Notes: generated from the sequence alone by a model not told the origin. Shown: positions 3,129-50,235, counted from the first letter of the stretch. The stretch is DNA of 64,000 bases from an uncultured Enterobacteriaceae bacterium (GCA_964552535.1 CAZKHE010000002.1:10711-74710), one strand, 5' to 3'. A program made the numbers and translations.

Positions 3129-3584
3129 ATGACGCAACGCATCGCCCGGCTGGGCCGGGCCACCGTGCACGCGGTCATGCTTGCCGCGGCGCTCGCTGCG
3201 GCGCTGCCGGCGGAGGCTTCCCGGTGGGGCGCGCGACGCGAGTTCCGCGAAGGCCAGCGCGAGATCGCGCGCGAGCGCCGCGAGATGCGCCGGGACATCA
3301 TGCGCGCGGACTCGCCCAGGGAGGCGCGCCGCGCCTATTGGGAGGGCCAGCGGGAGATCGGCCGCGAGCGCCGCGAGATGCGGCGCGAGGTCCATCGCGA
3401 GCTCCGCTATGGGCGCTGGGAGCGCGACCGCGTGGGCGAAGTGATCGCCGGCGTGGCCCTGGGCGCGGTGATCGTCGCGGTCGCCCGCGGCGTGGCCCCG
3501 ACGCCGCCGTCGCCGGAACTGTGCTGGGTCTGGAGCGACCCCTATCACGAGCGCGGCTACTGGGACCGCTGCGGCGGGTACTGA
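3129..3584 (+). CDS. Secreted Arg/Glu-rich protein with internal repeat and C-terminal Cys pair
   Basis: SD GAGGAG; EGQREI(A/G)RERREMRR twice; GEVIAGVALGAVIV; CWVWSDPYHERGYWDRC. Confidence 0.75.
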   Translation: MTQRIARLGRATVHAVMLAAALAAALPAEASRWGARREFREGQREIARERREMRRDIMRADSPREARRAYWEGQREIGRERREMRREVHRELRYGRWERDRVGEVIAGVALGAVIVAVARGVAPTPPSPELCWVWSDPYHERGYWDRCGGY

Positions 3585-5014: not shown

Positions 5015-5482
5015 TCAACTGCCCGTTTGTGACATCGCCCGCATGCGCGCTTCGACCTCCTCGCTGCTGAGGTCTTCCTTGTGGGTGGCGAGATGCCAGG
5101 TGTGGCCGAACGGGTCGCGGACGCTGCCGCTGCGGTCGCCGTAGAACTGGTCCTGCACGGGCCGCACCGGGGTCGCACCGGCTTCCACCGCGCGGGCGTA
5201 CACCGCATCGACGTCCTCGACGTACAGATGCAGGTGGACCGGCGAGCCCTGGTGATGCTCGGGACCGCGGAAGCCGATGTCCGGATGCTCGTCGGCGAGC
5301 ATCACCACCGAATCGCCGATCTCGAGCTCGGCATGGCTGATCTTTCCCTCCGCGCCGGCGAGCCGCATGCGCTCGCGGGCGCCGAACGCGCGCGCGTAGA
5401 ACGCGATCGCGGCGGTGCCGCCGTCCACGCAGAGGTAGGGGGTCAGCGAGTGGTAGCCCTCGGGAATGGGCGTGGCAGCCAT
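5015..5482 (-). CDS. VOC/glyoxalase family protein (PhnB-like)
   Basis: IPEGYHSLTPYL, HAELEIGDSVVMLADE, DQFYGDRSGSVRDPFGHTW. Confidence 0.92.
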   Translation of the reverse strand: MAATPIPEGYHSLTPYLCVDGGTAAIAFYARAFGARERMRLAGAEGKISHAELEIGDSVVMLADEHPDIGFRGPEHHQGSPVHLHLYVEDVDAVYARAVEAGATPVRPVQDQFYGDRSGSVRDPFGHTWHLATHKEDLSSEEVEARMRAMSQTGS

Positions 5483-5540
5483 GGTTTCGTCTCCTGTCGT
5501 CGTTCAATGCCCAGCAAGCGGCATTCCCGCCGCAGCGCGG

Positions 5541-5570
5541 GGCTTCGTATTCTGGGGCCGCGCGGTTACA
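5541..5570 (-). promoter_or_regulatory. ECF-sigma-type promoter TGTAACC-N16-CGAAGCC pointing to the VOC gene
   Basis: Minus strand -35 at 5570-5564 and -10 at 5547-5541; both boxes and the 16-bp spacing recur exactly at 33897-33868. Confidence 0.65.
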
Positions 5571-5611
5571 GCCGGCCTGCAAAAGAAAAGCGCGCCTCGG
5601 CGGCCGGGACG

Positions 5612-5659
5612 GGTAACCGCCGGATGGCTCGGCCCGTACTACCGGTCAGATCGCGGCGA
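5612..5659 (+). promoter_or_regulatory. ECF-type promoter GGTAACC-N16-CGTACT plus conserved leader for repeat protein P1
   Basis: 5635-5659 matches 33953-33977 at 24/25 nt. Confidence 0.65.
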
Positions 5660-5721
5660 CGACGCGAAGCAGGCGGCAAGCAGAGCGATCCCACCCACCC
5701 CAACCGAACTGGAGAACGATC

Positions 5722-6051
5722 ATGCTGAACCTCAAGACCCTGGTTACCGGCCTTGCCCTGGCCGCGTCCTTTGCCTCCTTCAATGCCGTCGCCGCGGACG
5801 ACTGGTATCGCTCGACCGGCGGCGTGGCGCCCCACGCCATCGGCGACGAGTTCTATGCGCGCGGCACCGGCGGCGTGACCCCCAACGCGATCGGCGACGA
5901 GTTCTACGCTCGCGGCACCGGCGGCGTCGCGCCGGCGATCGCCGACGACTTCTTCGCGCGCGGCACCGGCGGCGTGACGCCGGGCGCGGTCAGCGACGAG
6001 TTCTATTCGCGCGGCACCGGCGGCATCGCTCCCCAGGCGCACGGCGAGTGA
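5722..6051 (+). CDS. Secreted TGGV-repeat protein P1 (5 repeats)
   Basis: SD GGAGA; signal peptide NAVA-A; repeats such as DEFYARGTGGVTPNAIG; three paralogues in the window. Confidence 0.9.
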   Translation: MLNLKTLVTGLALAASFASFNAVAADDWYRSTGGVAPHAIGDEFYARGTGGVTPNAIGDEFYARGTGGVAPAIADDFFARGTGGVTPGAVSDEFYSRGTGGIAPQAHGE

Positions 6052-6077
6052 TCGCGCGTCCGTGAAGCGGAGCGCAG

Positions 6078-6105
6078 GCGCGGGTCCCGGTGTCGGGATC
6101 CGCGC
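6078..6105 (+). terminator. GC-rich 12-bp hairpin after P1
   Basis: gcgcgggtcccg-gtgt-cgggatccgcgc (one G-U pair); no U tract, so possibly a stabiliser or attenuator. Confidence 0.45.
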
Positions 6106-6129
6106 GGCATTCATCGCAAAGGAAGCCGC

Positions 6130-6912
6130 ATGATGCTTCGCGCGTGCATGGCGTTGCTTGCCGCAGTCGTGACGCTCGCTCCGGGTACGGCGGACGCGCG
6201 GCGTTGCTCCGCGGTGTCCGGTCCCGATCGCGTCCCGTTGATCGAGCTCTATACCTCCGAGGGTTGCGACAGTTGTCCGCCCGCGGACCGCTGGCTCGCG
6301 ACGACCGCCGCGGAGGCCTTCAAGGCGGGACGCGCCGTGCCGCTCGCGCTGCACGTCGATTACTGGGATCACCTCGGCTGGCGCGACCCCTACGCGTCGG
6401 CGCAGTTCAGCGCACGTCAGCGGGCATCGGCGCAGCGCGCCAACAGCCGCGTCATCTACACGCCGCAGGTGCAGGTGAACGGCCGCGATTTCCGCGGCTG
6501 GGGAGATCGCCGCGCAGTGGCGCGTGCGCTCGACGCCGGCGGCGGACCCGCACGGGCGAAGCTCGCGCTGGAGGCCACGCAACAGGGCGCCGCACCGTGG
6601 ACCATCGCCGTGAACGCGGAGGCGGCGGGCGAGACGGCACGCGGCGCGGGGGTCTACCTCGCGCTCTACGAAAGCGGCCTGGTGTCGCAGGTGAAGGCCG
6701 GCGAGAACCGCGGCGCGACGCTGCGGCACGACTTCGTCGTGCGCGAATGGCTCGGGCCGCTGCCGCTCGACGCGACCGGACGCTTGAGCGACACGCGGAC
6801 GCTGCCGGCGCGCGTGGACATCGACTACTCGCGCGCCGGAATCGCGGCCTTCGTGCAGGATGCGCGCGGCGAGATCCTGCAGACGCTCGCGCTGCCGCTC
6901 TGCGGCGGCTGA
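6130..6912 (+). CDS. DUF1223 thioredoxin-like secreted protein
   Basis: ELYTSEGCDSCPPAD (CxxC), LHVDYWDHLGWRDPY, YTPQVQVNG, GENRGATLRHDFVVR. Confidence 0.9.
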   Translation: MMLRACMALLAAVVTLAPGTADARRCSAVSGPDRVPLIELYTSEGCDSCPPADRWLATTAAEAFKAGRAVPLALHVDYWDHLGWRDPYASAQFSARQRASAQRANSRVIYTPQVQVNGRDFRGWGDRRAVARALDAGGGPARAKLALEATQQGAAPWTIAVNAEAAGETARGAGVYLALYESGLVSQVKAGENRGATLRHDFVVREWLGPLPLDATGRLSDTRTLPARVDIDYSRAGIAAFVQDARGEILQTLALPLCGG

Positions 6913-6950
6913 TGCGCTGATTCGCGGGCGGGCGTACCGAGGCGGGACCG

Positions 6951-8330
6951 CTACACGGGCTTGAGATCCCCCAGCACCGTCGGCACCAGCTCCGCCACCG
7001 TCGGATGGATGTGCACGGCGTGCTTCAGCGTCGTGTAGGGCTGGCGCGCGTACATCGTCTGCAGGATGGTGTGCACCACCTCGTCCCCGCCGACGCCGAG
7101 GATCGCGGCGCCCAGGATCTCCTGCGAGTCGGCGTCCGTCATGACCTTGATGAAGCCCTGGGTCTCGCCCTTCTCGATCGCGCGCCCGACGCGCGACATC
7201 GGCCGCTTGCCGACGAGCACCTTGCGGCCGGCCTTCTGCGCCTCGGCGAGCGTCATGCCCGCACGGCCGAGCGGCGGGTCGATGAACAGGCCGTAGGTCG
7301 CGATGCGGTCGGTCACGCGCCGCGCGGCGCCGTCGAGCAGGTTGTCGGCGACGATCTCGTAGTCGTTGTACGCGGTGTGCGTGAATGCGCCGCGGCCGTT
7401 GCAGTCGCCCAGCGCCCAGACGCCCGGCACCGAGGTCTCCAGCGTGTCGTTCACCTTGATGTAGCCGCGCGCGTCGGTCTCGATGCCGGCGCGGTCGAGC
7501 CCGAGGTCGTCGGTGTTGGGGAGCCGCCCGATCGCGAGCAGCGCGGCGCTGGCCTCGATGCGCGGGGCGCCCTCGACGCACTCGAGTTTGACCGCCACGC
7601 CGCCCGCGCACGGCGCCAATGCGAGGCACTTCGCATCGACGCGGACCGCGACGCCTTCACGCTCGAGGATGGCGCGCACCTCGGCGGACACGTCCTCGTC
7701 CTCGCGCCCGATGAGCCGCGGCCCCATCTCGACGACGGTCACGCGGCTGCCGAAGCGCCGGTACATGTGCCCGAACTCGAGGCCGATGTAGCTCCCGCCG
7801 ACGATGACGAGATGCTCCGGCACGAAGTCCACGTGCATGATGGACGAGCTGGTGAAGTGCGGCGTGACGTCGGCGCCGGCGACCCCGCGCGTGCTCGGCC
7901 GCCCGCCGACGTTGATGAAGATGCGCGGCGCCTCGAGCGTCTCGCCGTTCACCTCGACGGTGTGCGGCCCGGTGAAGCGCGCGTGGCCGCGAAACACCGA
8001 GATGCGCTCGTGGCCCGTCATCCACTTCTCGACGATCTCCCGCGAGCGGCCCACGACCTCGTCCTTGCGCGCCTTGACGCGCTGCATGTCGATGCGCGGC
8101 GGGGCGTCGAGCACCACGCCGTACTCGGCGGCGCGCTGCGCGGCGCGCGCGACGGCGGCGCTCGCGACGAGGGTCTTGGTCGGGGTGCAGCCGGTGTTCA
8201 CGCACGTGCCGCCGAAGCGGGCACGCTCGATGATCGCGACCTGCATGCCGGAGCGTGCGAGGCGGTCGGCCATGGCGGGTCCCGCCTGGCCGGTGCCGAT
8301 GACGATGGCGTCGAAGCGCGCGGCAGTCAT
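6951..8330 (-). CDS. Pyridine nucleotide-disulfide oxidoreductase (RclA/MerA-like family, not MerA)
   Basis: GTGQAG FAD site, GGTCVNTGCTP redox disulfide, GGSYIGLE, HIHPTVAE; no C-terminal Cys pair. Confidence 0.9.
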   Translation of the reverse strand: MTAARFDAIVIGTGQAGPAMADRLARSGMQVAIIERARFGGTCVNTGCTPTKTLVASAAVARAAQRAAEYGVVLDAPPRIDMQRVKARKDEVVGRSREIVEKWMTGHERISVFRGHARFTGPHTVEVNGETLEAPRIFINVGGRPSTRGVAGADVTPHFTSSSIMHVDFVPEHLVIVGGSYIGLEFGHMYRRFGSRVTVVEMGPRLIGREDEDVSAEVRAILEREGVAVRVDAKCLALAPCAGGVAVKLECVEGAPRIEASAALLAIGRLPNTDDLGLDRAGIETDARGYIKVNDTLETSVPGVWALGDCNGRGAFTHTAYNDYEIVADNLLDGAARRVTDRIATYGLFIDPPLGRAGMTLAEAQKAGRKVLVGKRPMSRVGRAIEKGETQGFIKVMTDADSQEILGAAILGVGGDEVVHTILQTMYARQPYTTLKHAVHIHPTVAELVPTVLGDLKPV

Positions 8331-10502: not shown

Positions 10503-11069
10503 ATGATCGCCGACCGCATGCCGATGCTTTCCCGCGAACAGATGAACGAGGCGCAGCGCGCCGCGGCCGACGAGCTGATCGCCGGTCCGCGCAAGGCCGT
10601 GTTCGGGCCGTTCATCCCGCTGCTGCGCAGCCCCGGGCTGCTCGCCACGATGCAGAAGGTGGGCGAGTACCTGCGCTTCCACAGTCCGCTGCCTCGCCGG
10701 GCGGCGGAGTTCGCCACGCTGGTCGTGTCGCGGCAGTGGACGCAGCACTTCGAATGGCACGTGCACCTGCCGCTCGCACGCCAGGCGGGCACCGCCGCCG
10801 AGACCCTCGACGACCTGCGCGCCGGACGCCGTCCGCGCGGCATGAGCGACGAGGAGGGGCTCGTCCACGATTTCATCGTGGAGCTGACGGCGAACAAGGG
10901 CGTGAGCGACGCGACGTACGCGGCCGCCGTCGAGCGGTTCGGCGAGGCGGGGGTGATGGACCTCGTCGGCGTGATCGGCTACTTCACCGCCATCTCGATG
11001 GTGCTCAACGTGGCGGGCACGCCGGGGGCGCCGACGGCGGGGGCGGCGCCATTGCCGCCCCTGCCGTGA
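10503..11069 (+). CDS. Carboxymuconolactone decarboxylase (AhpD-like) family protein
   Basis: GPFIPLLRSP, EFATLVVSRQW, FEWHVH, DLVGVIGYF. Confidence 0.85.
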   Translation: MIADRMPMLSREQMNEAQRAAADELIAGPRKAVFGPFIPLLRSPGLLATMQKVGEYLRFHSPLPRRAAEFATLVVSRQWTQHFEWHVHLPLARQAGTAAETLDDLRAGRRPRGMSDEEGLVHDFIVELTANKGVSDATYAAAVERFGEAGVMDLVGVIGYFTAISMVLNVAGTPGAPTAGAAPLPPLP

Positions 11070-17644: not shown

Positions 17645-17673
17645 TGTATCCGAATCGATCCGGCCTGCGTACT
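17645..17673 (+). promoter_or_regulatory. ECF-type promoter TGTATCC-N16-CGTACT
   Basis: Same -10 (CGTACT) as the P1 and P4 promoters and the same 16-bp spacer as P1; A-tract GAGAAAAAC upstream. Confidence 0.6.
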
Positions 17674-17730: not shown

Positions 17731-18737
17731 ATGACTCGTGCCAGACACGTGCCGCCCATGCTGCTCGCCGCTGCGGCCGCGGCAATGACCGCCTTGCCCG
17801 CCTCCGCCCAGGTCGATCCGGCCGCGGCCGTCGACCAGTTCGAAGCCACGTTCGGCAAGTACGAGGGCTATCGCCGCTCCGGCGCCAAGGGCGTCTGCGC
17901 GGTCGGTGAATTCACCGGGAGCGCGGAGGCACGCGCGCTGTCCACCGCGTCGGCGTTCAGCGGGAAACCCGTACCGGTCATCGCGCGTTTCTCGGTCGGC
18001 GGCGCGAACCCCAAGGCGCCCGACAACGCGCGGACCCAGCGCAACATGGCGCTGCAGTTCAACCTGCCCAACGGCGAATCCTGGCAGATGGGCAACATCT
18101 CCGCGCCGGTCTTCGGCGCCGCCACGCCGGAACAGCTGATCGGCCGGCTCAAGTCGCTGCAACCGGATCCGACGACGAAGGCCGCCGATCCGGCCAAGGT
18201 CAAGGCTTTCGCCGATGCCAACCCCGAGGTGCTGGCGCAGGGCCGCTACTTTGCGAGCCAGCCGGTGCCGGCGAGCTTCGCCACGGTGAACTACTGGGGC
18301 GTGCACGCGTTCGGCTTCGTCAACGCCAAGGTGAGAAGCAGTGGGGCAAGTGGGTGTTCGAGCCCGTCGGCGGCACGCAGGGGCTGAGCGACGAGGAGGC
18401 CAAGGCGAAGGGCACGGACTTCCTGATCGGCGACCTTCGCCAGCGCGCGGCGAGCGGGTCGGTGGCGTTCGACTTCATGCTGCAGCTCGCGCAGCCGGGC
18501 GACCGCCTCGACAGCGCGGTGACGCCCCTGCCCGACGACCGCCGGAAGGTGAATCTCGGCCGCCTCGTGATCAAGTCCGTGTCGCCCGACATGACCGGCG
18601 AATGCCTCACCATCACCTACAACCCGATGATCCTGCCGAAGGGCGTGGAGCCCTCGGCCGATCCGATGCTCGCGGCGCGCGCGGCGCCGTATGCCGTAGG
18701 CCTCGGACGGCGGTTGGCCGAAGGCGCGAAGCAGTAG
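17731..18737 (+). pseudogene. Catalase-related (SrpA-like) heme protein split by an apparent 1-nt deletion near 18330
   Basis: ORF 17731..18387 (signal peptide, RRSGAKG, NYWGVHAF) continues in another frame as GEKQWGKWVFEP...ARAAPY (ORF 18354..18737); adding one G at aag|gtgag restores a single frame. Confidence 0.8.
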
Positions 18738-18784
18738 CGACGCCGGGCGGAGCGGATCGGTCACCCGCTCGGCCTTCGCGGCAC

Positions 18785-18892
18785 CGTTCGGTTCCGGCGA
18801 ACGATGAATTGCGCGCAGGACGGTTTTTCTCGCGAGGCCGAGCGGTCACACTGCAAGCCATGGAGTCGCCCAACGCAAAAAAGCGGCTCCGG
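18785..18892 (+). promoter_or_regulatory. LysR-type activated promoter for P2: CGTTC-N9-GAACG dyad plus candidate -10 CACACT
   Basis: Gap-free match to 33413-33520 (constant offset 14628; 56/70 nt identical over the 3' part). Confidence 0.7.
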
Positions 18893-18931
18893 GCAAACCG
18901 ACCGACCCAACTTTCAGTGAAGGAGACCATC

Positions 18932-19255
18932 ATGATCCGCAACATTCTCGCCATCACCGCCGCCGCCTTCGGCATCGCTTCCACCAGCGCCATCGCGGCG
19001 GACGACTGGTATCGCTCCACCGGCGGCGTGTCGCCGAATGCGCAGGAAGACTTCTATGCCCGCGGCACGGGCGGCGTGAGCCCGAACGCGATCGCGGACG
19101 ACTTCTATGCTCGCGGCACGGGCGGCGTGACGCCCAACGCGATCGCCGACGATTTCTACGCGCGGGGCACCGGCGGCGTCGCCCCGCAGGCGGTCAGCGA
19201 CGAGTTCTACGCCCGCGGCACGGGCGGCGTCGCGCCGCAGTCGCACGCCGAGTAA
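18932..19255 (+). CDS. Secreted TGGV-repeat protein P2 (107 aa, 5 repeats)
   Basis: SD AAGGAG; signal SAIA-A; tail of ORF 18341..19255. Confidence 0.9.
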   Translation: MIRNILAITAAAFGIASTSAIAADDWYRSTGGVSPNAQEDFYARGTGGVSPNAIADDFYARGTGGVTPNAIADDFYARGTGGVAPQAVSDEFYARGTGGVAPQSHAE

Positions 19256-21226: not shown

Positions 21227-21610
21227 ATGGGCGACGACATCGGCAAGCTGATCCTGCGCATCACGCTGGGCGGGCTCATGCTGCTCCACGGCATCGCAAA
21301 GGTCATCGGCGGCGTCGCCGGTGTGGAGAAGATGCTCGGCGGGGTCGGACTGCCCGCGGCGCTCGCGCTCGGCGTGTACGTCGGCGAGGTACTCGCGCCG
21401 CTCCTGGTGCTGCTCGGCTTCTACGCGCGCGTCGGCGCCGGGATCATCGTGATCAACATGCTCTTCGCCGTGCTGCTCGCGCATCGCGGCGATCTCTTCT
21501 CGCTCACCCGGACGGGCGGCTGGGCGCTCGAGCTGCAGGCGTTCTTCCTGCTCACCGCGCTGGCGCTCGCCTTCATGGGCCCGGGGCGCTTCGGCATCAA
21601 CCGGCGCTAG
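21227..21610 (+). CDS. DoxX family membrane protein
   Basis: GKLILRITLGGLMLLHG, GEVLAPLLVLLG, GGWALELQ. Confidence 0.9.
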   Translation: MGDDIGKLILRITLGGLMLLHGIAKVIGGVAGVEKMLGGVGLPAALALGVYVGEVLAPLLVLLGFYARVGAGIIVINMLFAVLLAHRGDLFSLTRTGGWALELQAFFLLTALALAFMGPGRFGINRR

Positions 21611-30262: not shown

Positions 30263-30913
30263 CTACTGCGCGGCCTCTGCCTTGGGACCCGGCGCGTACT
30301 GGTCCACCGCTTCGGCCATCTCGGTCAGCGTGCGCTCCATCGACTTCGCCCCGTAGGGATAGAACGCCGACTTGTCTCCTGCGTCCCACTGCTTCCGGAG
30401 CTCGGGGCGGCCGAGGTCCCAGTCGGCCCGCATCTCTTGTGTGAGACCGCGGAGGCGCTCGTGCAGCTCCCCCGTGGAAGGCCGTCCCCAGTAGTAGTAG
30501 CCGTTCCACACGCTGTGGATGCGCAACTTCGGGGCGAGCAGGACCGTGTGCGGCACCATCGGCTCGTGCGACGGATCGGTGTACTCCAGGATGTCCAGCT
30601 CGTCGCGCACCACGTGCGCCTCGTCGTACAGGAAGGTGTAGCTCGCGCCGAGCTGCTGGCGCAGGTTGTTAGTGGTGTGCCAGTCGTCGCTGGTGATCAC
30701 GACGAGGTGGCAGCTTCCGACGACGAGCTGCGGATGGAATGCCGTCAGTTCCTTCAGCTGCTGGCGGTCCTTCGGACAGAAGAAGCCGCGGATGAGGACG
30801 ACGAGCATCGGATCGGCCGTCCCCTGCAGCGCGGACAGGCGGCGCAGCGTCTGCGTGTGGTCGGGCAGCTCGAAGTCCGGGAAAGTCTCACCGGGTTTGA
30901 TGTCGGGTCGCAT
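30263..30913 (-). CDS. Redoxin-domain protein (single Cys, RGFFCPKD)
   Basis: PGETFPDFELPDHT, VLIRGFFCPKD, YYYWGRPS; ATG 30913. Confidence 0.8.
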   Translation of the reverse strand: MRPDIKPGETFPDFELPDHTQTLRRLSALQGTADPMLVVLIRGFFCPKDRQQLKELTAFHPQLVVGSCHLVVITSDDWHTTNNLRQQLGASYTFLYDEAHVVRDELDILEYTDPSHEPMVPHTVLLAPKLRIHSVWNGYYYWGRPSTGELHERLRGLTQEMRADWDLGRPELRKQWDAGDKSAFYPYGAKSMERTLTEMAEAVDQYAPGPKAEAAQ

Positions 30914-33374: not shown

Positions 33375-33390
33375 GCGGGGGAACGCCGCT

Positions 33391-33412
33391 CAGCCCCGGT
33401 TTTGGGGCTGTT
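33391..33412 (+). terminator. Hairpin after the DUF2007 gene
   Basis: cagcccc-ggtttt-ggggctg followed by tt. Confidence 0.4.
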
Positions 33413-33520
33413 CGTTCAGCCAAACTGAACGATCCTTTCTTTCCAGCCCCGTTTTTCTCTTCCCGCCGAGCAGCCACACTGCAGGCCATGGAGTCGCCAA
33501 ACACGGAAGTGCGGCTCCGG
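33413..33520 (+). promoter_or_regulatory. LysR-type activated promoter for P3 (CGTTCAG-N5-CTGAACG; candidate -10 CACACT)
   Basis: Colinear copy of 18785-18892. Confidence 0.7.
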
Positions 33521-33555
33521 ACCCTACAGTCAACTTCGTCAGGAAAGGAAACGCC

Positions 33556-33864
33556 ATGATCCGCAAGACCCTCGGCCTCACCGCCATCGCCCTCGCGCTC
33601 TCCGCCAACGCCGCCCTCGCGGCCACCGACTACAACCTCGGCACTGGCGGCGTCCCGCCCCAGGTGAACGAAGACTTCTACGCCCGCGGCACCGGCGGCG
33701 TCTCGCCCAACGCCTACGACGACTACGCCCGCGGCACGGGCGGCGTCTCCCCGAACGCCTACGACGACTTCGCCCGCGGCACCGGCGGCGTCCCGCCCCA
33801 GGTGAACGACGACTTCTACGCCCGCGGCACCGGCGGCGTGGCGCCGCAGGCGACCGCGGAGTAA
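33556..33864 (+). CDS. Secreted TGGV-repeat protein P3 (102 aa, 5 repeats)
   Basis: SD AGGAAAGGA; signal AALA-A; repeats DDYARGTGGVSPNAY. Confidence 0.9.
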   Translation: MIRKTLGLTAIALALSANAALAATDYNLGTGGVPPQVNEDFYARGTGGVSPNAYDDYARGTGGVSPNAYDDFARGTGGVPPQVNDDFYARGTGGVAPQATAE

Positions 33865-33867
33865 CGC

Positions 33868-33897
33868 GGCTTCGCGTGGAGATCCGCTTCGGTTACA
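33868..33897 (-). promoter_or_regulatory. ECF-type promoter TGTAACC-N16-CGAAGCC facing antisense into P3
   Basis: Boxes and spacing identical to 5570-5541. Confidence 0.6.
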
Positions 33898-33928
33898 GCA
33901 CGGCGAGAAAACATTCTTCCGCCCGACC

Positions 33929-33977
33929 TGAAACCGAAGCGCCGCATGCCAACGTACTAACGGTCAGATCGCGGCGA
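33929..33977 (+). promoter_or_regulatory. ECF-type promoter TGAAACC-N17-CGTACT plus conserved leader for P4
   Basis: 33953-33977 matches 5635-5659 at 24/25 nt. Confidence 0.65.
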
Positions 33978-34036
33978 TCACGCAAACAGCGAAGCGCCGA
34001 GCGGTCCCGCCCGACACCATTCAAGGAGACTCGATC

Positions 34037-34354
34037 ATGAAACTGAAGACCATCGCTTCCAGCCTCGCCCTCGCGGCGTCCCTCGTGTCCGTCAACGCCA
34101 TCGCGGCCGACGACTGGCACCGTTCGACCGGCGGCGTGCCGCCCCAGGCGTATGACGACTTTGCCCGCGGCACGGGCGGCGTGACGCCGAACGCGTACGA
34201 CGACTTCGCGCGCGGCACGGGCGGCGTCTCGCCCAACGCGATCGACGACTCGTTCTACGCGCGCGGCACCGGCGGCACCTCGCCCCAGGCCGTGAGCGAC
34301 GAGTTCTACGCGCGCGGGACCGGCGGCGTGGCGCCCCAGTCGCACGCCGAGTAA
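34037..34354 (+). CDS. Secreted TGGV-repeat protein P4 (105 aa, 5 repeats)
   Basis: SD AAGGAG; signal NAIA-A; signal peptide most similar to that of P1. Confidence 0.9.
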   Translation: MKLKTIASSLALAASLVSVNAIAADDWHRSTGGVPPQAYDDFARGTGGVTPNAYDDFARGTGGVSPNAIDDSFYARGTGGTSPQAVSDEFYARGTGGVAPQSHAE

Positions 34355-49674: not shown

Positions 49675-50235
49675 ATGGACCGCCGCAGTGCACTGAAGAC
49701 GTTGTTCGCAGGCAGCGCCGCCGCCGCGCTCGCCGCCTGTCGCAGCGAAGCGCAGACGCTCGCCGCGCCGAAAGGCGTCGAGACGCTGCAAGCGAACTGG
49801 AAATCATTTCTGCCGCCGGGGGCGCAGGTGCCCTCGCCTGCCGAGCCGCTCAAGCTCGCGGACGCGGAGTGGCGCAAGCGCCTGGACAAGCCGCAGTACT
49901 ACGTGCTGCGCGAAGAAGGCACCGAGCGACCGGGGTCGAGCCCGCTCAACGACGAGAAGCGCGCCGGCGTCTTCGCCTGCGCCGGGTGCGGCCTGCCGCT
50001 CTTCACCTCGGCGATGAAGTACGACAGCGGCACCGGCTGGCCGAGCTTCTTCACCACCATCCCCGGCGTGTTCGGCACCAAGCGCGACTTCAAGTTGGTG
50101 CTGCCGCGCACGGAGTACCACTGCACCCGTTGCGGCGGCCACCACGGCCATGTGTTCGACGACGGCCCCGCGCCGACCGGCCAGCGGTGGTGCAACAACG
50201 GCGTCGCGTTGCGCTTCCTGCCGCAGGCCGGCTGA
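49675..50235 (+). CDS. msrB: Peptide methionine (R)-sulfoxide reductase, Tat-exported
   Basis: MDRRSALK Tat signal; YYVLREEGTERP, CAGC, KYDSGTGWPSF, CTRCGGHHGHVFDDGP, RWCNNG. Confidence 0.95.
   Translation: MDRRSALKTLFAGSAAAALAACRSEAQTLAAPKGVETLQANWKSFLPPGAQVPSPAEPLKLADAEWRKRLDKPQYYVLREEGTERPGSSPLNDEKRAGVFACAGCGLPLFTSAMKYDSGTGWPSFFTTIPGVFGTKRDFKLVLPRTEYHCTRCGGHHGHVFDDGPAPTGQRWCNNGVALRFLPQAG

Follow-up and report, generated by a model that had tools for sequence, protein, structure and literature searches.

What reads the control region that stands in duplicate ahead of two genes for small secreted repeat proteins? The genes, P1 and P4, lie in the 64,000-nucleotide stretch of DNA analyzed here (hereafter the window; 71% G+C), which contains two copies of a conserved control module of about 180 bp. 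The answer that we favor, and consider fairly probable, is that these class-1 P genes stand behind a module read by a sigma factor of the ECF16 kind that is encoded in trans. The cassette is a new target of a known type of regulator and not a new kind of regulation.

A shared control region upstream of P1 and P4

Direct reading of the sequence bore out the architecture that a preliminary description of this DNA had reported. Specifically, the minus strand carries TGTAACC-N16-CGAAGCC at 5570-5541 and 33897-33868, the plus strand carries GGTAACC-N16-CGTACTA ahead of P1 and TGAAACC-N17-CGTACTA ahead of P4, and an A-tract precedes the plus-strand promoter at both loci. The 25-nt leader CGTACTAnCGGTCAGATCGCGGCGA is identical at 24 of 25 positions between 5635-5659 and 33953-33977. 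The further claim that the cassette was duplicated along with the repeat genes holds for P1 and P4, but not for P2 and P3, which share another upstream element. The features of the two loci are as follows.

5015..5482, minus strand: VOC/glyoxalase-family gene (Pfam PF00903, E 1e-17)
5541..5570, minus strand: predicted outward promoter of the P1 cassette, ECF16 consensus (-35 TGTAACC at 5570-5564, 16-nt spacer, -10 CGAAGCC at 5547-5541)
5581..5589, no strand assigned: A-tract AAAAGAAAA between the two -35 boxes of the P1 cassette (invariant A columns in alignment A3)
5612..5641, plus strand: P1 proximal promoter (-35 GGTAACC at 5612-5618, 16-nt spacer, -10 CGTACTA at 5635-5641)
5648..5691, plus strand: 5'-terminal hairpin of the P1 mRNA (AGAUCGC at 5648-5654 pairs with GCGAUC(C) at 5685-5691)
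5722..6051, plus strand: P1, secreted protein of 109 aa (signal peptide, DDFYARGTGGVxPxA repeats)
33868..33897, minus strand: predicted outward promoter of the P4 cassette, ECF16 consensus (TGTAACC-N16-CGAAGCC, -35 at 33891-33897)
33905..33912, no strand assigned: A-rich tract GAGAAAAC between the two -35 boxes of the P4 cassette (from reading and alignment)
33929..33959, plus strand: P4 proximal promoter (-35 TGAAACC at 33929-33935, 17-nt spacer, -10 CGTACTA at 33953-33959)
33966..34007, plus strand: 5'-terminal hairpin of the P4 mRNA (AGAUCGC...GCGGUC with a U-G wobble; -18.1 kcal/mol, z -2.5)
34037..34354, plus strand: P4, a 105-aa secreted repeat protein, paralog of P1

Transcription is predicted to start at about 5643-5647 from the proximal promoter of P1 and at about 33961-33965 from that of P4. 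The outward promoter at P1 has a predicted start at about 5533-5538, which is 50-55 nt ahead of the divergent VOC gene. The A-tract may act as a shared, putative UP-like element.

Chance does not account for the motifs of the cassette. The leader has two matches in the window versus 0 expected, and TGTAACC-N16-CGAA, with at most one mismatch, has two versus 0.16. For the strict form GTAAC[CA]-N16-CGAA, there are two matches versus 0.01 expected, and for G[AT]AACC-N16/17-CGTA two versus 0.075. No sigma70-like promoter was found in the intergenic region of either P1 or P4. A sigma54 reading of the -10 region was ruled out by eye, GG-N10-GC being absent.

Conservation among related cassettes

Our comparison covered 12 distinct class-1 cassettes, those of the window together with others on metagenome contigs of relatives, and eight of them make up alignment A3. 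Mean column identity in A3 is 65%, with free variation in the spacers and invariant columns at TTCG, CGGTTAC, the A-tract, AACC, CGTACTA, and CAGATCGC. All 12 cassettes have the plus-strand promoter, kGwAAC(C/G)-N16/17-CG(T/A)ACTA, each time with a spacer of 16 or 17 nt, with 71-88 nt from the end of the -10 to the ATG, and with AGATCGC starting 6 nt past the -10. CGTACTA is the -10 in 11 of them, and sites orthologous to the P4 proximal promoter are present in L013b and L182b. The minus-strand site is found in nine of the 12 cassettes, with a spacer of 16 nt in eight and of 15 nt in L186; it is missing in L184, L182b, and L185, which retain the proximal promoter. The distance from the outward site to the proximal -35 is 32 bp in three cassettes and 42-45 bp in six, two spacing classes that differ by about one helical turn. 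Among GTDB representative genomes, the exact cassette pattern had 0 matches, and no plasmid match was found.

An argument can be made that such boxes are not promoters, but rather operators for a DNA-binding regulator or relics that were copied passively with the gene. GGTTAC and GTAACC do form an inverted repeat, and a difference of about one helical turn in box spacing would suit operators. Yet each box is paired with its partner at a fixed 16-17 nt across spacers that are not conserved, which is the signature of a -35 and a -10. Furthermore, the T-to-A change in TGAAACC is uncompensated in GGTTAC, and there is no sigma70-like promoter at these loci for an operator to regulate. Passive relics are excluded because the boxes are invariant over 8-12 diverged copies. 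We judge this whole class of explanations to be very improbable and continue to read the boxes as promoters.

Two readings of the region as RNA structure were also set aside. Pairing between CGGTTAC and GTAACCG was ruled out by the same uncompensated change in the TGAAACC cassettes, and a conserved hairpin or terminator in the A-tract region between the sites was ruled out by z-scores near 0 in seven of nine cassettes.

Probable assignment to an ECF16-type sigma factor

Previous work in four organisms used mapped 5' ends to place GTAAC at the -35 and CGAA at the -10. The promoter of SigF in Caulobacter is GTAACC-N16-CGAA, and that of RpoE7 in Sinorhizobium (S. meliloti) is TGTAACA...CGAAT, found ahead of rpoE7 and SMb20530. 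In Bradyrhizobium (B. japonicum), EcfF recognizes GTAAC(g,a)-N14-15-(c,t)CG(t,a), which permits CGT, and transcription starts 6 bp past the -10. Finally, the BcrS promoter of Brucella was determined by 5'-RACE as TGTAAC / GCGAAA.

The ECF16 resemblance proposed in the preliminary description is exact for the minus-strand sites, which match this consensus at every position, and looser for the plus-strand sites, whose CGTA fits only the relaxed -10 of EcfF. At the -35, the form (T)GTAAC(C/A) was found in the minus-strand sites (TGTAACC), in the plus-strand site of P1 (GGTAACC), and in the plus-strand site of the relative L184 (TGTAACC), with the TGAAACC of P4 being one base off. At the -10, CGAA was found in both minus-strand sites of the window (CGAAGCC) and in the plus-strand site of L184 (CGAACTA), whereas the plus-strand sites of the window have CGTACTA, and 12 of 13 plus-strand -10 boxes have CGTA, not CGAA. 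L184 (also indexed as L018) has the exact consensus TGTAACC-N16-CGAACTA on its plus strand. Because this cassette is canonical, the proximal promoters form a series with the exact ECF16 consensus at one end and the CGTA variants of the window at the other.

The genomic setting of L184 is also of note. Its P gene and an Oxidored_molyb (MsrP/YedY-like) gene are arranged divergently, and homologs of yedY are members of described ECF16 regulons. A second plus-strand site, the ECF18-like TGCATCC-N16-CGTATC, lies about 160 nt farther upstream (L184:4691-4719), directly adjoining the start of the divergent MsrP-like gene.

As had been stated earlier, no ECF sigma gene is present in the 64-kb window. 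A phmmer search with an RpoE sequence as query and a Pfam search of 40 ORFs returned no ECF sigma factor and no anti-sigma gene, including DUF1109 (NrsF).

A hairpin at the 5' end of the mRNA

The conserved leader of the preliminary description is present, and it is better described as the 5' arm of an mRNA hairpin. All nine leaders that were folded have the closing stem AGAUCGC...GCGAUC, in a hairpin of 27-47 nt whose interior differs by lineage and whose stem starts within a few bases of the predicted transcription start. Energies range from -9.6 to -27.9 kcal/mol, and z-scores from -1.4 to -5.1 for segments whose ends were chosen by hand, which favors the scores. In the stem variants GCGGUC (P4) and GCGAUU (L001), pairing is kept via G-U wobbles, and this is so in the plus-strand RNA only. 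When RNAalifold was run on the leader alignment, it returned only an invariant pairing of 5 bp with the start-codon region; it missed the hairpin because MAFFT had misaligned the 3' arm, and single-sequence folds revealed the structure. The inter-site region, which served as a negative control, gave no consistent fold. The hairpin likely acts as a 5'-terminal stabilizer, or as a switch together with the CGAUC just before the AUG.

Searches for known RNA families were negative. Rfam 15 had no match at gathering score in the whole window, and at E<=1 it had only chance-level matches in 5480-5725 and none in 33380-34040. No tRNAs were found.

RNA ends in relatives

For RNA, we relied on metatranscriptome contigs of relatives, which are unstranded and of low depth; the window's own organism is represented only in DNA metagenomes, including the biofilm metagenomes X1-X5. 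The P gene of L009 has its -35 at 2893-2899 and its -10 at 2916-2922, and one contig there has its first base at 2944. At L014 (-10 at 2915-2921), two contigs, each from a separate study, begin at about 2942. These three contigs (X17, X32, and X33) have their starts 21-22 nt past CGTACTA. Likewise, at the catalase gene of L009 (-10 at 5171-5176), contig X30 starts at 5186, which is 10 nt past the -10, and there is no coverage upstream. Across these unstranded data, four of six contig starts lie 10-22 nt past a predicted -10, or three of five when the proximal P promoter is taken alone. The P4-type cassette had no RNA coverage in the metatranscriptome contigs. The ECF16-type reading is well supported by sequence and comparison, and partly by these RNA ends.

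Two further contigs of L009, X28 and X29, come from different studies and begin 2 nt apart, at 2866 and 2868, inside the A-tract and ahead of the proximal -35. The position is homologous to about 5586 in the window, and contig depth is 2-3. Such starts could reflect a distal start, read-through, DNA carry-over, or an assembly break.

The predicted outward promoter

The outward site faces a gene at a suitable distance in three of nine cassettes. The genes faced are a VOC/glyoxalase gene (at P1 of the window and again in L186) and, in L001/L002, an FAD oxidoreductase gene; at the P1 locus, the VOC gene is the only candidate. In the other six cassettes the upstream gene is co-directional, being a P3-type gene (window and L013) or a gene for DUF1223, a pirin, an acyl-CoA-synthetase-like protein, or a 249-aa ORF (L010). 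The -10 of the outward promoter at P4 lies 3 nt from the P3 stop codon, an arrangement that recurs in L013. This promoter is directed into the 3' part of P3 and would transcribe antisense to it. No RNA leaving the outward promoter was seen in the unstranded metatranscriptome contigs of relatives. The outward boxes are invariant even where the divergent gene is absent. An orphan outward site of this kind is possibly a means of sigma-dependent antisense control or of promoter coupling, or else a motif that should be read in the reversed orientation.

With the orientation reversed, the upstream motif would be a plus-strand promoter with a -35 of TTCG and a -10 of GGTTAC, P would have a distal start in the A-tract, and there would be no outward promoter. 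This would fit the constant orientation of the motif relative to P, at the cassette border whatever the neighbor, as well as the six of nine sites that have no divergent gene and the two independent contigs that start at L009:2866/2868, 16-18 nt past GGTTAC. In addition, a 2026 study of transcription start sites in Cupriavidus metallidurans lists ECF16 in its Table 4 as -35 AATTCG / -10 GGTTAC (PMC13492112). However, transcription start mapping in four species sets GTAAC at the -35 and CGAA at the -10, and the Cupriavidus entry is the reverse complement of the motif mapped there. The Cupriavidus authors found no RpoQ-dependent promoter carrying their own motif (PMC13492112), and a reversed orientation may be the reason. 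Moreover, the motif is almost exactly the reverse complement of the proximal promoter, so that one specificity used in two orientations is the simpler account, and the three cassettes without the site retain everything else. The contigs that would support a distal start are unstranded and have a depth of 2-3. We find the reversed orientation quite improbable, and read the upstream motif as an ECF16-type promoter that would face away from P.

A related site upstream of a catalase-like gene

A forward site resembling those of the cassettes had also been reported ahead of a catalase-like gene elsewhere in the window.

17645..17673, plus strand: related promoter-like site TGTATCC-N16-CGTACT, 58 nt ahead of the catalase-like ATG at 17731
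17731..18737, plus strand: catalase-related gene (Pfam PF00199), in two frames

Orthologous sites and a 55-fold enrichment place this site in the motif family of the cassette. The orthologous sites are TGTAGCC-N16-CGTAAT in L009 and TGTATCC-N16-CGTACTA in L181. The enrichment is that of the degenerate motif nG[TC]A[ATG]CC-N16-CG[AT]A in 80 Burkholderiales loci, mostly from relatives of Rubrivivax, Ramlibacter, and Methylibium, with 14 occurrences in the 23 kb upstream of catalase-like genes versus 13 in the remaining 1.17 Mb. Canonical TGTAACC-N16-CGAAAT precedes the catalase-like gene at three loci, and these are the sole strict ECF16 sites in 971 kb. In about 11 relatives the gene is preceded by (T/C/A)GCATCC-N16-CGTA.

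The catalase-related gene of the window is split between overlapping frames at 17731-18387 and 18354-18737, with a frame change near 18328, and tblastn alignments pass from frame +1 to frame +3 at residue 200. In L009, the ortholog is a single uninterrupted ORF (about 335 aa). Either a frameshift has made the gene of the window a pseudogene, or the assembly is in error here.

The diversity of these sites could indicate that two ECF factors are involved, with an ECF16 factor reading the outward CGAA and an ECF18/19-like factor (RpoT/SigK-RskA type) reading CGTACTA and the catalase site. In favor of two factors, 11 of the 12 P cassettes have the same -10, CGTACTA. The (T/C/A)GCATCC-N16-CGTA sites also fit the ECF18-type consensus GCATCC / CGTAT tabulated for RpoP of C. 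metallidurans (PMC13492112, Table 4), and the TGTATCC of the window is one base from the TGCATCC of its relatives. Against this, L184 reads CGAACTA at the homologous plus-strand position, and EcfF, which is an ECF16 factor, takes CG(t/a). Moreover, GTAACC at the proximal -35 corresponds to ECF16, and the -35 boxes of P (GTAACC or GAAACC) do not fit the GCATCC of ECF18. The canonical sites of the catalase family in three genomes suggest a continuum and orthologous factors. In the ECF18 literature, we found no experimental link of ECF18 factors to catalase-like genes. A pair of factors seems unlikely to us, and a single factor of the ECF16 kind is our preferred reading for the P cassettes.

The P proteins and their neighborhood

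The P family has no Pfam or NCBIfam model. Among 5.8 billion protein clusters we recovered 13 members (P0001-P0013), all of them unnamed. In 185,579 GTDB representatives, a single P sequence recovered no locus and the family alignment recovered one distant locus (L007); the closest IlvE in these representatives is 72% identical. Each protein has 2 to 5 units of 15-17 aa, with DNA periods of 45, 48, and 51 nt, and the family is almost confined to freshwater, sediment, and biofilm metagenomes of Burkholderiales-like organisms. An AlphaFold2 model of P1 has a mean pLDDT of 48 and no confident fold past the signal peptide; such a low-confidence model is compatible with a disordered periplasmic peptide.

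Neighboring genes in the window have an oxidative or thiol-stress flavor; they are listed here together with the two further repeat-protein genes, P2 and P3.

6130-6912: DUF1223
6951-8330: FAD disulfide oxidoreductase related to RclA/MerA
10503-11069: CMD
18932-19255: P2, small secreted repeat protein
21227-21610: DoxX
30263-30913: AhpC-like
33556-33864: P3, small secreted repeat protein
49675-50235: exported MsrB

The P genes of other loci have MsrP-like, AhpC, CMD, OsmC, pirin, and catalase-like genes as neighbors. One gene order, in which a VOC gene diverges from P, DUF1223 follows P in the same direction, and an FAD oxidoreductase gene converges on both, is common to the window (5015-8330) and L186:989-4079. 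DUF1223, a secreted CxxC protein, adjoins the P gene on either side in four independent contexts (further coordinates are L014:2100-3279 and L185:3547-4635), and this recurrent adjacency suggests a functional pairing. A search for ECF-like sites ahead of MsrB (49675) and DoxX (21227) returned nothing convincing.

Genes of the P2/P3 type have their own conserved upstream element of about 130 nt, located at 18780-18931 and 33408-33555 in the window and at L010:140-295, L013:436-588, L016:125-278, L180:7860-8000, and L182:1530-1675 in relatives. It contains a palindromic hairpin, GTTCGG-N5-CCGAAC, with the compensatory change GTTCAG/CTGAAC in P3, a segment GUUUUUCU able to pair with the Shine-Dalgarno region AGGAAAGGAAA, and a further hairpin GGAGUCGCC...GCGGCUCC. 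RNAalifold assigns the element -20 kcal/mol and five pairs with compensatory changes, and there is no Rfam match. The element is a candidate for a new cis-regulatory leader that would sequester the ribosome-binding site.

One more repeat-bearing gene lies near the start of the window. The ORF at 3129-3584 encodes a small exported protein with three tandem GQREIxRERREMRR units, rich in Arg and Glu, at 3226-3432, and the protein belongs to no Pfam family.

Proposed mechanism and significance

In the mechanism that we propose, an ECF16-kind factor (like SigF/NrsF, EcfF, RpoE7, and BcrS), encoded in trans, would read the module. The proximal plus-strand promoter would fire, with transcription starting about 5-7 nt past the -10, and the mRNA would open with the AGAUCGC...GCGAUC hairpin, followed by a C-rich linker, the Shine-Dalgarno sequence, and the ATG. 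The product would be a small periplasmic repeat protein, probably disordered. Where a divergent gene exists, the outward TGTAACC-N16-CGAA would co-induce it, that is, the VOC/glyoxalase gene in the window and L186 and the FAD disulfide oxidoreductase gene in L001. The catalase-like gene would come under a variant of the cassette promoter family. By analogy with known ECF16 systems, the inducing stress may be an oxidant, a chlorine species, or a metal.

ECF16 systems are a widespread periplasmic response to oxidant, chlorine, and metal stress, with regulons that are small and partly understood. Our analysis adds a candidate member, a rare family of secreted tandem-repeat proteins described in no database. 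The promoter geometry of the cassette and the 5' hairpin of its mRNA are precisely defined and open to reporter tests. Promoter type ties the P family to a catalase-related gene across many Burkholderiales, and position ties it to DUF1223, VOC, MsrP-like, and RclA/MerA-like oxidoreductase genes. The cassette is also a natural example of an orphan divergent promoter that has been conserved.

A bolder proposal, which we advance as a conjecture with rather little expectation that it will hold, is that the P proteins are new ECF16-controlled periplasmic repeat peptides that serve as MrpX-like scavengers, carried on a self-contained, relocatable cassette whose orphan promoter is functional. If true, the P proteins would use aromatic/Asp/Arg-Gly chemistry in place of the methionine of MrpX. 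The orphan promoter would then exert sigma-dependent antisense control, with P3 as its target at the P3-P4 tandem, or alternatively it would be coupled to the proximal promoter by helical phase.

Comparison with known systems

The ECF16 system of Caulobacter crescentus resembles the present one in several respects. Its sites (sigF, CC3254, CC2907, and CC2748) have the same -35 GTAACC, 16-nt spacer, and -10 CGAA. The SigF regulon is small and comprises periplasmic and redox stress proteins, including a YedY/MsrP-type gene and DoxX, and sigF is itself divergent from its target operon. Unlike in Caulobacter, no sigF-nrsF pair lies beside the sites described here, and the proximal -10 is CGTA. Furthermore, the targets in Caulobacter are bufferin-type DUF2282/DUF692/DUF2063 operons, whereas here they are genes of an undescribed repeat-protein family.

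Similar parallels can be drawn with EcfF/OsrA, RpoE7/EcfR7, and BcrS/AbcS. These systems share the (T)GTAAC(a/c/g) -35 and the CG(a/t)A -10, a transcription start about 6 nt past the -10, and regulons that respond to oxidants or hypochlorite. They differ in being alphaproteobacterial and in their autoregulation, for which each has a promoter next to its sigma gene. No conserved 5' hairpin leader or orphan outward promoter has been reported for them.

There is also a likeness in layout to the betaproteobacterium Azospira suillum, in which back-to-back SigF promoters lie between sigF-nrsF and yedY1Z1-mrpX. MrpX is a small, Sec-exported periplasmic peptide of biased composition that is strongly induced by SigF. 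MrpX is rich in methionine and is recycled by YedY. The P proteins, in contrast, are built of DDFYARGTGGVxPxA repeats and lack internal Met and Cys, and in the cassettes described here one of the two promoters often has no gene ahead of it. The two systems are alike in having two diverging SigF-type promoters within one intergenic region and a small exported product. Because of SigF and MrpX in Azospira, both the architecture of the cassette and the type of its product have a precedent.
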